Source of the DNA: Candidatus Nomurabacteria bacterium
GTDB taxonomy: Bacteria; Patescibacteriota; Minisyncoccia; Phycocordibacterales; UBA9973
Reading direction: 5' to 3'
Length of the DNA stretch: 64,000 bases
Assembly (NCBI GenBank): GCA_026396065.1
Contig: JAPLXO010000006.1
Coordinates: 1,525 to 65,524 of the forward strand
A model generated the notes under the pieces. It searched no databases, was not told the origin of the DNA, and saw only the letters and a program-made list of their open reading frames with translations. A program made the translations under genes and the position numbers. This document shows, in pieces, positions 1,237-48,991 of this stretch. The first letter of the stretch is position 1. Each line of letters starts with the position of its first letter.

Positions 1237-1318
1237 GCCCGGGTGGCGGAATTGGTAGACGCGCACGACTCAAAATCGTGTCTCGTAAGGGGTGAGAGTT
1301 CGATTCTCTCCCCGGGCA
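1237..1318 (+). tRNA. tRNA-Leu (anticodon CAA)
   Basis: Cloverleaf by eye: acceptor GCCCGGG/CCCGGGC, anticodon loop CTCAAAA, long variable arm, T-loop GTTCGATTC. Confidence 0.85.
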
Positions 1319-1321
1319 CAT

Positions 1322-2644
1322 ATGAAAAAAATAAATACAACAATTAATTTTGAAATAAATGGAGGAAATAAACTTCATGGTTCTATTGCTACAAATGCTT
1401 CCAAAAATGGTTCCGTTGGTCTTTTGTGTGCATCTCTATTAAATAAAGGCAAAACGACACTACACAACATTGCACGAATAGAAGAAGTAAACAGAGTTAT
1501 AGAAGTATTAGAAAGTATTGGTGTAAAAATAAAATGGATCGGTCCTCAAAGTCTAATAATTACCCCACCAAAAAAATTCAAAATAGAAAATTTAGATTCA
1601 GAATCTGCTGTAAAAACAAGAAGTATTATAATGTTTGCGGGACCATTAATTCATTATTTAAAAAAATTCTCTCTACCACATGCGCAAGGGTGTAAACTAG
1701 GTAAAAGAACAGTTTCTGCTCATATTTATGGACTTCAAGAATTGGGAGTGAAAATAAAAGTTACTAATCAAAATTATGAAATCGATAGTGATAAACTAAA
1801 ACCTACAGAAATAATTATGTACGAATCTGGAGACACAGCTTGTGAAAATTTACTCACTGCGGCATCTCTTGTAGAAGGAAAAACAACAATTAAATTTACT
1901 ACTGCAAATTATATGGTACAAGAAATTTGTTTTTTCTTGGAACACTTAGGAGTAAAAATTGATGGCATTGGTTCTACTACTTTGACTATCCATGGAATAA
2001 AAGAAATAAATAAAGATATTGAATATTATAATAGTGAAGACCCGATAGAATCTATGATGTGGATCACTTCTGCTATTGCAACAAACTCTACTCTTGAAAT
2101 ACAAAAATGCCCAATAGATTTTTTGGAATTGGAATTATATAAATTAAAAAAAATGGGTTTGAAATATAAAATTTTAAAAAATTATAAGTCTAAAAACTCT
2201 CGCACAAATCTCGCAGATATAAAAATATTACCTTCAAAGTTGAAAGCATTGGAAGATAAAATAGAGGCTCGCCCTTATCCAGGGTTAAATATAGACAATT
2301 TACCATTTTTTGGCCTCATTGCTGCATGTGCAAAAGGTACTACCTTGATACATGATTGGGTTTATGAAAATAGAGCAATATATTTAACAGAATTAAATCG
2401 CCTAGGAGCTACTGTTCTTCTAGCTGACCCACACCGTGTATATATAGAAGGTCCAACTCAATTTAAACCTGCACAAATAGTTTGCCCGCCAGCACTTCGT
2501 CCTTCTGTGGTAATAATGCTTGCAATGCTTTCAGCGAAAGGTAAATCCATGTTGCGTAATGTATATATGATAAATCGTGGTTATGAAGATATCGTAAAAA
2601 GATTTCGCACTATTGGTGCAGACATAAAAGAAGTGCGTGACTAA
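1322..2644 (+). CDS. murA: UDP-N-acetylglucosamine 1-carboxyvinyltransferase MurA
   Basis: N-terminal GxxLxGxxxxxxSKNxxLxLLxASLL pattern; catalytic Cys in HAQGCKLGKRTV loop; start moved to the ATG at 1322 because the track ORF (1292) overlaps tRNA-Leu. Confidence 0.85.
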   Translation: MKKINTTINFEINGGNKLHGSIATNASKNGSVGLLCASLLNKGKTTLHNIARIEEVNRVIEVLESIGVKIKWIGPQSLIITPPKKFKIENLDSESAVKTRSIIMFAGPLIHYLKKFSLPHAQGCKLGKRTVSAHIYGLQELGVKIKVTNQNYEIDSDKLKPTEIIMYESGDTACENLLTAASLVEGKTTIKFTTANYMVQEICFFLEHLGVKIDGIGSTTLTIHGIKEINKDIEYYNSEDPIESMMWITSAIATNSTLEIQKCPIDFLELELYKLKKMGLKYKILKNYKSKNSRTNLADIKILPSKLKALEDKIEARPYPGLNIDNLPFFGLIAACAKGTTLIHDWVYENRAIYLTELNRLGATVLLADPHRVYIEGPTQFKPAQIVCPPALRPSVVIMLAMLSAKGKSMLRNVYMINRGYEDIVKRFRTIGADIKEVRD

Positions 2645-4054: not shown

Positions 4055-4210
4055 TTTTCTCATTTCTAAACCTTTATGTTATACTTGTTTTGGCAGTAAA
4101 AGTTTACTGCTTGTTCTTTATATTTAGGTTATATCTTCGGGTATTTCCTATTAAGGACGTAACAATTATTTATTCTTATGTCCTCACCCTCCCCGTTTTA
4201 CGGGGAGCGT

Positions 4211-4281
4211 GGGCGATTAGTTTAGTGGTAGAACGAAGGTCTCCAAAACCTTTGGTGGGGGTTCGATTCCCTCATCGCCCG
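4211..4281 (+). tRNA. tRNA-Trp (anticodon CCA)
   Basis: Acceptor GGGCGAT/ATCGCCC, anticodon stem AAGGT/ACCTT with loop CTCCAAA, T-loop GTTCGATTC. Confidence 0.85.
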
Positions 4282-4285
4282 CAAT

Positions 4286-4324
4286 GATACGAAAAGAGAG
4301 CCTGAATGGCTCTCTTTTCGTATC
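4286..4324 (+). other. perfect 17-bp stem-loop directly 3' of tRNA-Trp
   Basis: GATACGAAAAGAGAGCC-tgaat-GGCTCTCTTTTCGTATC; no T-run follows, so it is not a canonical terminator. Confidence 0.6.
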
Positions 4325-4330
4325 ATCATT

Positions 4331-4427
4331 GAGTGGCTATTAGGGAAGCGAAAGCCGGAGCGCGTCGGCGCGAGGCGGGGTAGCGGAATTTTTCAGCAGA
4401 AAAATATCCGTGACCGATTCCCTAATC
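4331..4427 (+). repeat. tRNA-associated GC-rich structured repeat, copy A (candidate ncRNA)
   Basis: Closed by 9-bp stem ATTAGGGAA(4339-47)/TTCCCTAAT(4418-26); core GCCGGAGCGCGTCGGCGCGAGGC (4354-4376) and AT hairpin ATTTTTC-agca-GAAAAAT (4388-4405); ~90% identical over ~55 nt to copy B at 48823-48876. Confidence 0.5.
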
Positions 4428-4452
4428 TTTAAAGCTTTAGTATAATTAAATT

Positions 4453-4794
4453 ATGAAAAAATTTAAGATTATCAATATTAAAGATGTTCCCTTAGAAGGA
4501 ACACACGATCTTCCTAATTCACGAAAAACATTAGCAACTTCAGAAGATGTAGAAACAAACAATCTCGATGCTTTAACAAAAGGATTTCTTGAAAAAGGAA
4601 AGATATGGGATTGGCATAATCATGCTGGTCACGATGAATTTTGTATTGTTCTTAAAGGAAAAGGTGAATTTCATTGGGAATATGAAATGTCAGAATATAA
4701 ATTAGAAGATGTAATAATCATTCCAGCAAAGGGTAAACACAAGATAGTGGCAATTGAGGATTCCGAGTTTTATTTTGTCCGAATTGCAATTTGA
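4453..4794 (+). CDS. cupin-domain protein
   Basis: 113 aa; HNHAGHDEFCIVLKGKGEF and IIIPAKGKHKIVA resemble the two cupin beta-barrel motifs. Confidence 0.55.
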   Translation: MKKFKIINIKDVPLEGTHDLPNSRKTLATSEDVETNNLDALTKGFLEKGKIWDWHNHAGHDEFCIVLKGKGEFHWEYEMSEYKLEDVIIIPAKGKHKIVAIEDSEFYFVRIAI

Positions 4795-14557: not shown

Positions 14558-14592
14558 GATGGTTAGACACCTCACCCGCCTCAGTAGAGGCA

Positions 14593-14615
14593 CCCTCTCC
14601 TTATAAAGGAGAGGG
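14593..14615 (+). repeat. hairpin CCCTCTCC-ttataaa-GGAGAGGG (copy 1 of a repeated hairpin module)
   Basis: Near-identical to the terminator hairpin at 17269-17295; both are preceded by a CCTCACC motif. Confidence 0.5.
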
Positions 14616-14645
14616 TTAGGTGGAAAGCTAAAGCTTTCGATATTG

Positions 14646-14717: not shown

Positions 14718-14764
14718 CAATTGTTAATTAAAAATATATAATTTATAATTAACAATACAAAGTT

Positions 14765-14835
14765 TGCCCGGATGGATGAAAAATAAACTGCTTTATTTTT
14801 CATCCGAGTGAAATGAGGAGGCCGCCATCCGGGCA
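14765..14835 (+). other. nested inverted-repeat element upstream of tRNA-Leu(TAA); its right arm is the reverse complement of the tRNA 5' end
   Basis: Outer arms TGCCCGGATGG / CCATCCGGGCA; inner perfect 14-bp hairpin GGATGAAAAATAAA-ctgc-TTTATTTTTCATCC; GGCCGCCATCCGGGCA complements the first 13-16 nt of the tRNA gene at 14884. Confidence 0.5.
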
Positions 14836-14883
14836 ATGATTTTGTTTACAAAATAGAAAATATGAAATATATTTTCTAAATAT

Positions 14884-14993: not shown

Positions 14994-15066
14994 GCGCCCA
15001 TAACTCAGCTGGTAGAGTAGCTCCCTCTTAAGGAGAATGTCGTAGGTTCGATCCCTACTGGGCGCA
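14994..15066 (+). tRNA. tRNA-Lys (anticodon CTT)
   Basis: Acceptor GCGCCCA/TGGGCGC, anticodon loop CTCTTAA. Confidence 0.85.
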
Positions 15067-15070
15067 CAAG

Positions 15071-15163
15071 ATTAAAAAGTTTACGGGGTAAAGTTTTTAA
15101 TTTGTGCGAGGCGGAGGCACGGAGGTGCCGAGCCAGGGTCGTACAAAAATTCACCAGAATTTT
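15071..15163 (+). repeat. tRNA-spacer structured element (weak third copy of the GC-core + AT-hairpin module)
   Basis: Hairpin ATTAAAAAGTTTA-cgggg-TAAAGTTTTTAAT; GC-rich GCGAGGCGGAGGCACGGAGGTGCC; AT hairpin AAAATTC-acca-GAATTTT mirrors the hairpin in copies A and B. Confidence 0.35.
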
Positions 15164-15178
15164 ATGTATGACCAGATT

Positions 15179-48636: not shown

Positions 48637-48771
48637 AAATACAATAAAAATCAAATACAACAAAGAACATACTATTAACAGCATAATATCATTATTATTA
48701 AAAAAGTCAATTTAAGTTAGATTAGAAAAATAGGGTTGTTTTTTATTGAAATTCTGCTAAAATAGTTTTAT

Positions 48772-48899
48772 TCGGGAGTTGGCAAGCGGTGGAGTGAGCT
48801 TGGGATGGGACCCAGGCGCAAGGCCGGAGCGCGACGGCGCGAGGCAAGGCTATAGAATTTTTCAGTAGAAAAATATCTGGAGCGTCGCCTGTTAATCTG
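48772..48899 (+). repeat. tRNA-associated GC-rich structured repeat, copy B, embedded in a degenerate tRNA-Asn-like leader
   Basis: 5' end TCGGGAGTTGGCAAGCGGTGGAG mimics the tRNA-Asn acceptor/D arm; core GCCGGAGCGCGACGGCGCGAGGC (48823-45); AT hairpin ATTTTTC-agta-GAAAAAT (48857-74); 3' end GTCGCCTGTTAA mimics the Asn anticodon arm; extended -10 TGCTAAAAT at 48755-63. Confidence 0.5.
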
Positions 48900-48919
48900 A
48901 ATAAAAAATGTAAAAACAT

Positions 48920-48991
48920 TCGGGAGTAGCTCAGCGGTAGAGCGGTCGCCTGTTAAGCGATTGGTCGTAGGTTCGATCCCTACCTCCCGAG
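48920..48991 (+). tRNA. tRNA-Asn (anticodon GTT)
   Basis: Acceptor TCGGGAG/CTCCCGA, D-arm GCTC/GAGC, anticodon loop CTGTTAA, T-loop GTTCGATC. Confidence 0.85.

Follow-up and report, generated by a model that had tools for sequence, protein, structure and literature searches.

What is the GC-rich structured repeat that stands beside tRNA genes in the 64-kb window analysed here (the window being the whole stretch of DNA under study), and what might it do there? An initial annotation had described such a repeat next to tRNA-Trp, with two further copies elsewhere, and had offered a small RNA, a tRNA-processing signal or a mobile mini-element at tRNA loci as explanations. All the features it described were found where it had placed them, and all three explanations are still live candidates. 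It had missed one key feature: the closing stem of the repeat is an inverted plus a direct copy of the end of the neighbouring tRNA. We consider the observation to be real. As far as sequence can tell, the repeat is a CPR-wide family of structured RNA with tRNA-derived architecture.

The module and its family

There are exactly three copies in the window, A (4346-4419), B (48815-48888) and C (15102-15177), and the conserved module measures about 62 nt in each of them. The core strings GCCGGAGCGCGNCGGCGCGAGGC and GAATTTTTCAGYAGAAAAATATC have two exact occurrences each within the window (in A and B), where shuffled sequences are expected to give none. Because a strict structural descriptor search recovered only about half of the known copies, a covariance model (R1) built from relatives was used. 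Applied to the window, it gave 93.5, 72.4 and 64.4 bits for the three copies and 13.5 bits for the runner-up. Since copies A, B and C are all in the training alignment of R1, the 64-bit score of copy C is not independent; independent support comes from compensatory base changes. Copy C had been listed as a weak form. It does belong to the family, and the resemblance is more than weak: the same architecture is kept through compensatory changes. When folding was compared with that of shuffled sequences, z was -7.2 for A, -9.2 for C and -4.0 for B. ARAGORN and Rfam place a tRNA gene beside every one of the three copies, just as had been claimed, and a scan of the whole window with Rfam 15 at gathering threshold returned eight tRNAs and nothing else.

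The three copies share a common plan, which consists of a closing helix, hairpin P2, a 2-nt linker and hairpin P3 (Table 1). P2 is a GC-rich hairpin with a GGA/GA internal loop, in the order stem, GGA, stem, 4-nt loop, stem, GA, stem. What had been taken for a mirror-repeat core is actually this hairpin (GCC-GGA-GCGC-loop-GCGC-GA-GGC). P3 is a 16-bp hairpin made of 9 bp, an invariant bulged A, 7 bp and an ANNA loop. A locus-specific helix always adjoins the module, one purine upstream of P2. Two stems of the earlier description have to be reassigned accordingly. The "perfect 17-bp hairpin" after tRNA-Trp measures 19 bp (4284-4302 / 4308-4326) and is a locus-specific helix instead of a part of the family. 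The 9-bp stem ATTAGGGAA/TTCCCTAAT is present (4339-4347 / 4418-4426), but it is a locus-specific helix too and not the conserved part. Some relatives carry inserts between P2 and P3, and larger variants build an extra hairpin, whose GAAUACUUGGA loop is conserved, into a 4- or 5-way junction.

Table 1. Parts of the three copies and two of their partner tRNAs in the window.
Feature	Position	Strand	Remarks
tRNA-Trp(CCA)	4211..4281	+	3' part from U54 (4262) onward is the sequence copied by the element
Copy A linker hairpin	4284..4326	+	19 bp, loop 4303-4307, locus-specific
Copy A antisense strand X' (GGCTATTAGGGAAGCGAA)	4335..4352	+	complementary to tRNA-Trp U54-C71 at 15/18 positions
Copy A P2	4354..4376	+	GCC-GGA-GCGC-GUCG-GCGC-GA-GGC; tandem G.A-type internal loop
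Copy A P3	4379..4415	+	9 bp, bulged A4406, 7 bp, loop AGCA; holds the conserved G.U pair
Copy A decoy X_down (CGATTCCCTaATC)	4415..4427	+	decayed direct repeat of tRNA-Trp C56-C68 (CGATTCCCTcATC)
Copy C helix H	15063..15108	+	5' arm is tRNA-Lys nt 70-73 plus trailer; 3' arm is the inverted copy
Copy C P2	15110..15134	+	GGC-GGA-GGCAC-GGAG-GUGCC-GA-GCC
Copy C P3	15137..15173	+	7 bp, bulged A15164, 9 bp, loop ACCA
Copy B decoy of tRNA-Asn 5' end (ATTCGGGAGT)	48770..48779	+	identical to 48918-48927
Copy B hairpin H	48798..48817	+	GCUUGGG-AUGGGA-CCCAGGC
Copy B P2	48823..48845	+	core string and R1 match
Copy B P3	48849..48883	+	bulged A48875, loop AGUA
Copy B 3' flank	48880..48902	+	GAGCGTCGCCTGTTAA matches tRNA-Asn nt 22-38 at 16/17 positions
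tRNA-Asn(GUU), partner of copy B	48920..48991	+	ARAGORN/Rfam

Relatives were collected in two sets, one selected by P2 and the other by P3. Each scan fixed the sequence of one hairpin, so that the other hairpin provides an unbiased test of covariation. In an alignment that is mainly P2-selected, 96.6% of P3 cells are paired and double changes occur in 19 of 23 pairs; the alignment contains 153 compensatory cells, and none of 500 shuffles was as good. In the P3-selected set, double changes were found in all seven P2 pairs. The covariation check proposed with the first description thus comes out strongly for both hairpins. At the base of P3, 44 of 48 sequences retain a G.U pair, and isolated mismatches in closing stems (P1) are G.U rather than A.C in ratios of 19:1 and 29:4. 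This conserved pair and the excess of G.U over A.C indicate that the P2-to-P3 strand folds single-stranded. The simplest reading is that it folds as RNA; folding of single-stranded DNA would fit the bias too.

At least 119 genome contigs contain the exact 22-nt P2 core and, among the matches listed, belong to Patescibacteria/CPR save one; this single non-CPR match comes without P3 and is a chance hit. Hosts among the matches listed are Saccharibacteria, Paceibacterota/Parcubacteria lineages, Minisyncoccia and Berkelbacteria, and identical 22-mers are found in distant CPR classes. The P3 string was found in at least 120 metagenome contigs, many of them with groundwater-style names (Hainich wells). 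The family counts more than 250 examples and is conserved in related genomes, and it spans too many groups to be called lineage-specific in the narrow sense. It appears to be restricted to Patescibacteria (CPR) and is apparently uncatalogued. A covariance model of it could potentially serve as a lineage marker for Patescibacteria. A large part of bacterial diversity belongs to the CPR and, to our knowledge, almost nothing is known about the RNA biology of these bacteria.

A known Rfam family, SRP RNA included, had been named as the outcome that would speak against a new element. Scans with Rfam 15 of positions 4100-4500 (E<=10) and of eight loci with other subtypes (E<=1) returned only tRNAs and chance hits far below threshold, which rules out SRP RNA, RNase P RNA, tmRNA, 6S RNA and the known ribozymes and riboswitches. 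There were no matches to the element in the viral collection IMG/VR, among INPHARED phages or among PLSDB plasmids, and a description of the module was not found in literature searches. A group I intron would interrupt the tRNA with a catalytic P3-P9 core of at least some 200 nt; here the module has 62 nt, the adjacent tRNAs are intact and intron models gave no match. By our own reading of the sequence, the bulge in the P2 loop has 0-1 nt and not the 3 nt of a K-turn or box C/D guide, and the linker strings that look like C and D boxes are not conserved. As far as these comparisons go, the module fits no known family or system.

Copies of tRNA ends around the module

In copy A, P2 starts 72 nt past tRNA-Trp and P1 is formed by pairing of positions 4339-4350 of the antisense strand X' with the decoy, the direct repeat that follows P3. 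The decoy has 9 exact nt left, matches at 12/13 positions and is decayed beyond 13 nt. Its A at 4424 (a C-to-A change) is compensated in X' (ATTAGGG), so that P1 stays paired. An intact ortholog of the decoy is present in L054, the counterpart of copy A, where the end of an ORF lies upstream of tRNA-Trp as it does in the window; in both we would read this ORF as rpmG-like (ribosomal protein L33). Relatives after tRNA-Ser and tRNA-Trp have CAAUGAU-hairpin-AUCAUUGCG at the position of the copy A linker hairpin. In silico, the full copy A precursor folds into cloverleaf, hairpin and junction, and when the decoy is removed, the centroid structure shifts to pairing between the antisense strand and the tRNA.

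The same relation to tRNAs is found in the relatives. Of the 274 tRNAs in the fetched loci, 87 are followed on the same strand, at a distance of no more than 230 nt, by a P3-type hairpin, compared with 3/274 in the control orientation, and tRNA-linked modules are co-oriented with their tRNAs. P2 lies 13-115 nt from the tRNA, and the segment bounded by repeats has about 90-150 nt. At least 17 tRNA isotypes carry the element, patchily, and most tRNAs are without it; none of the tRNA-Pro and tRNA-Cys genes in the fetched loci has a module. The same tRNA positions are occupied across CPR classes (Lys(ctt)-element-Leu(tag), Trp and Ser). tRNA-Trp is followed by the element in the window, L054, L076, L101 and L182, that is, at five of nine tRNA-Trp genes; at a sixth, L231, another insert occupies the same layout.

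The strand 5´ of P2, with one purine between, is antisense to the upstream tRNA. It starts at U54, the first base of the T loop, at about 45 of 86 loci, and at nt 70 at about 12 to 18 of the 86. The decoy starts exactly at C56, directly after P3, at 37 loci with a direct repeat of at least 15 nt (for example L014, L031 and L054). In the closed-junction type, the antisense strand and the direct repeat pair as P1, which closes a three-way junction around P2 and P3. In the permuted type (copy C, L016, L047 and others), the antisense strand pairs with tRNA nt 70-73 and the trailer as hairpin H, which amounts to a circular permutation of the closed junction. Where the two tRNA copies differ, the antisense strand agrees with the decoy alone at 21 sites and with the tRNA alone at 14, so both pairings occur.

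Copy C exemplifies the permuted type. Its true extent is 15110-15173, or 15063-15173 with hairpin H, and it occupies the whole spacer between tRNA-Lys(ctt) and tRNA-Leu(tag), P3 ending 5 nt before the latter. H replaces P1 and a decoy is absent. The order tRNA-Lys(ctt)-element-tRNA-Leu(tag) is common to the window, L016, L090 and L100.

Circularly permuted junction forms are typical of hammerhead and twister ribozymes, and the module resembles these in its compact multi-helix junction, in substrate helices whose sequence is arbitrary and in naturally occurring circular permutations. One might imagine a small catalytic RNA or a nuclease ruler that helps to form tRNA 3´ ends, with the antisense helix placing the end of the tRNA or its trailer a set distance away from P2/P3. 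The existence of forms closed by P1 or by H would suit such a device, as would the exact filling of a tRNA-tRNA spacer by copy C and the permuted helix that starts at nt 70 in 12 independent loci, which puts N73 four nt from the junction. We nevertheless find this quite unlikely. The helix of the more frequent form begins at U54, a distance of 20 nt from N73, which leaves no single ruler; most tRNAs do without the element, and the long-stem copies described below have no tRNA nearby. Known ribozyme models did not match in the Rfam scans and, unlike in small self-cleaving ribozymes, the conserved nucleotides are in the hairpins and not in the junction. The likeness is one of topology only.

Copy B stands upstream of its partner, and its P3 ends 36 nt before tRNA-Asn. 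Together with L210 it has a mirror layout: decoy of the tRNA-Asn 5´ end, H, P2, P3, antisense, tRNA-Asn. CTGAAT (48897-48902) is antisense to ATTCGG, which is present both in the decoy and at the start of the real tRNA-Asn, and CGCCUG inside GAGCGTCGCCTGTTAA pairs with CAGGCG at 48813-48818. The loop type of H, RNGGGA, is also found in L023 and L152.

Antisense and decoy copies of tRNA ends tie this conserved, multi-copy structured RNA to tRNA genes. Tentatively, and with somewhat less than even confidence, we hypothesize that the module works in cis as an RNA domain of tRNA precursors and spreads through local duplication. Judging by orientation alone, it would be co-transcribed with the tRNA, and it is predicted to act as a domain in cis, probably as a platform that binds a protein or a ligand. 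Such a domain might control or exploit folding and end-processing of the tRNA precursor. In the closed junction, the antisense strand would be captured by the decoy as P1 and the real tRNA would be free to fold; the decoy would then keep the antisense strand off the real tRNA. In the permuted junction, the antisense strand would pair with the last 3-4 nt of the tRNA and the trailer. New copies could arise by local duplication or template switching. Several observations count against a cis-acting RNA domain. Many members are not near tRNAs and would need promoters of their own, the element in L182 lies behind the intrinsic terminator of its tRNA, presence is patchy with truncated, tandem and decayed copies, and the strand bias fits folding of single-stranded DNA as well. 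The module could represent a class of RNA that works on the folding or processing of tRNA precursors. Among structured orphan or RNP-type RNAs that often lie beside tRNAs or mimic parts of them are GOLLD, ROOL and the tRNA-like Y RNAs (YrlA). Those, unlike the module, are much larger or Ro-linked and are present in Rfam; none matches the module, and none is built from antisense and decoy copies of a neighbouring tRNA.

A more specific and, in our opinion, unlikely possibility is that tRNA maturation is gated by a cis-acting switch, with the module as its sensor. Stabilisation of the P2/P3 core by a protein or small ligand would let the decoy capture the antisense strand (P1), and the tRNA would fold and be processed; otherwise, the antisense strand would invade the T arm and the acceptor strand (the 5´ end in the case of upstream copies). 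Different inserts within the same bracket (14764-14836 of the window; L231) would possibly be different sensors. As in riboswitch aptamers, a conserved core is combined with a variable P1, one strand of which has an alternative partner, here the tRNA. Unlike riboswitches, the module flanks tRNAs and not mRNA leaders, and the 20-40-bp P1 of long-stem copies cannot switch. If true, such a switch would mean riboswitch-like control of individual tRNAs, built from tRNA copies, across the CPR.

Copies without tRNAs and signs of duplication

Many P3-selected copies form the tip of near-perfect, locus-specific stems of 18-40 bp in intergenic regions with no tRNA nearby. These long-stem copies ("class 2") share contigs with tRNA-linked ones, and most of them run antisense or convergent to the flanking ORFs. 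Their stems differ at every locus, and within a contig they represent diverged paralogues. We have considered the stems as spacer-like guides and rejected the idea, because they are diverged paralogues and have no second genomic match except in L238.

The orientation of both kinds of copies bears on whether the hairpins act as folded single-stranded DNA, for instance as a recombination or replication site, and not as RNA. The bias of G.T over A.C and the extrahelical base would suit hairpins of the attC type or those at IS200/IS605 ends. On the other hand, tRNA-linked copies follow the direction of their tRNAs while long-stem copies are mostly antisense to neighbouring genes, and a single replication-strand rule does not fit both. 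We regard such a role of DNA hairpins as very unlikely.

The lengths of repeats that flank long-stem copies are overall no different from control, so that a general target-site duplication, being no better than control, was dismissed. One long-stem subfamily (L128, L140, L149, L160 and L216) has conserved termini CTTTGAATTRCGAAAC. Three of its five copies (L128, L160 and L216) are flanked by direct repeats of 6-8 nt (AGAATAC, TCATATAC, TCATAC), and by its termini and these repeats the subfamily behaves like a MITE. In L128, one copy of the subfamily is present in each of three successive intergenic regions.

The module as a whole shares with REP/REPIN, ERIC, BOX, Correia and RPE repeats and with MITEs that it is short, non-coding, multi-copy and intergenic and has long hairpins; with MITEs, one subfamily also shares conserved termini and short flanking repeats. 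It differs from the REP, ERIC and MITE repeats in that its apex is conserved superphylum-wide and its stems are locus-specific, the reverse of the logic of terminal inverted repeats. Moreover, it is strongly associated with tRNAs and shows no general target-site duplication.

Beside tRNAs, the direct repeats have a fixed left end at C56 and a variable length, from 15 to about 62 nt, and they reach into the genomic trailer and even the terminator. For this reason we have discarded a copy of reverse-transcribed mature tRNA (of the PBS type), as the repeats continue into trailer or terminator rather than CCA. In L182, the repeat of about 62 nt around the module after tRNA-Trp (1299-1372, minus strand) includes the encoded CCA and an intrinsic terminator, and tRNA-Tyr of the same locus (1984-2070, minus strand) is followed by two diverged tandem units. 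Tandem or truncated units occur in L123, L182 and L005.

Two further loci deserve mention. In L011 (460-1660, minus strand), the tRNA next to the module is tRNA-Arg(tcg), but the one matched by the repeat that follows the module is tRNA-Arg(tct), 1.1 kb upstream; the 1.1-kb interval holds a 183-aa ORF, tRNA-His and tRNA-Arg(tcg). In L231 (2969-3200), tRNA-Trp has an antisense-insert-decoy arrangement with a different, two-hairpin insert. At the related tRNA-Trp locus L239 (4300-4546), a gene directly follows the tRNA, and the locus looks like an empty site for this reason. Since the insert of L231 is a different one, the pair bears on the decoy/antisense layout and not on the present module.

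These observations can be accounted for in quite another manner, namely by a selfish, non-autonomous mini-element that is duplicated or mobile. Its hairpins would be recognised in trans, as single-stranded DNA or RNA, by a recombinase, transposase or reverse transcriptase. Its homing target would be the T loop (between 55 and 56) or the 3´ end; target or att duplications would account for the direct repeats, and template switching for the inverted copy. The C56 boundary with repeats of variable length into trailer and terminator speaks for this, together with the tandem and truncated units, the patchy use of at least 17 isotypes, the repeat in L011 that matches a distant tRNA, the identical 22-mers in distant CPR classes and the subfamily with conserved termini and flanking repeats in three of five copies. 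The possibly filled and empty tRNA-Trp sites of L231 and L239 would fit as well, with the different two-hairpin module of L231 in mind. Against it stand the missing coding capacity, a consistent neighbouring enzyme gene that was not seen, the viral, phage and plasmid collections without a match, and long-stem copies that as a whole give no target-site-duplication signal over control. Paralogues on one contig are diverged, which argues against recent spread, and the same tRNA positions recur across classes. Compensatory evolution in P1, P2 and P3 implies long-term structural constraint. A selfish element is therefore, to our mind, a doubtful though serious possibility. If it moves, it would be a structured mobile element that homes to the T loop; if it is a selfish repeat, it would be a kind of bacterial interspersed repeat.

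Integrative elements that target tRNA genes reportedly have their att sites in the T loop or at the 3´ end, with sublocation classes said to come from Williams 2002. The module is like them in that a direct repeat of the 3´ part of the tRNA flanks an insert (37 loci) and the tRNA gene is left intact. We have thus considered that the copies are attR-type scars of integrase-mediated islands that once resided in tRNA genes. The direct repeat begins in the T loop and continues past the 3´ end of the tRNA, in the manner of tRNA att sites, and L011 has its 1.1-kb segment between tRNA and repeat. However, the bounded segment is usually 90-150 nt, where an integrase or recombinase ORF cannot fit, and covarying RNA structure with an inverted, tRNA-matched antisense piece is no feature of att scars. 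The 5´-side (mirror), permuted and tRNA-independent copies are left unexplained, and no phage or plasmid counterpart was found in INPHARED or PLSDB. Scars of this sort are the least probable of the explanations that we have weighed, and we would hardly expect them. The partial tRNA duplications left by the element can nevertheless confuse annotation of tRNAs and att sites in metagenome-assembled genomes.

A second bracket, leaders and 3´ ends in the window

Positions 14764-14836 of the window consist of GCCCGGATGG, a 12-bp AU hairpin, 21 nt and CCATCCGGGC (z = -4.8). Its 5´ strand repeats the opening 10 nt of tRNA-Leu(taa), a gene found 48 nt further downstream, to which the 3´ strand is antisense. 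The segment is a decoy/antisense bracket around a different insert, and R1 has no match there.

The leaders of tRNA-Cys and tRNA-Trp (14568-14622 and 4183-4207) share CCTCACCC and fold stably. That of tRNA-Cys forms a three-way junction from CACCU/AGGUG and two hairpins (z = -5.7). Each of the two leaders looks like a degenerate copy of the 3´ part of its own tRNA.

On the other side of copy A, a TATAAT box (window 4441-4455) precedes the ATG of a cupin-domain gene (4453-4794) by about 7 nt. Its placement suggests a leaderless or very short-leader mRNA for the cupin-domain protein that would start right after copy A.

CCA is not encoded in the six tRNA genes of the window that we have read (Trp, Cys, Leu-taa, Lys, Leu-tag and Asn). 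In these genes, C-A comes directly after the discriminator base, as in G73-CAA of tRNA-Trp and A73-CAAG of tRNA-Lys.
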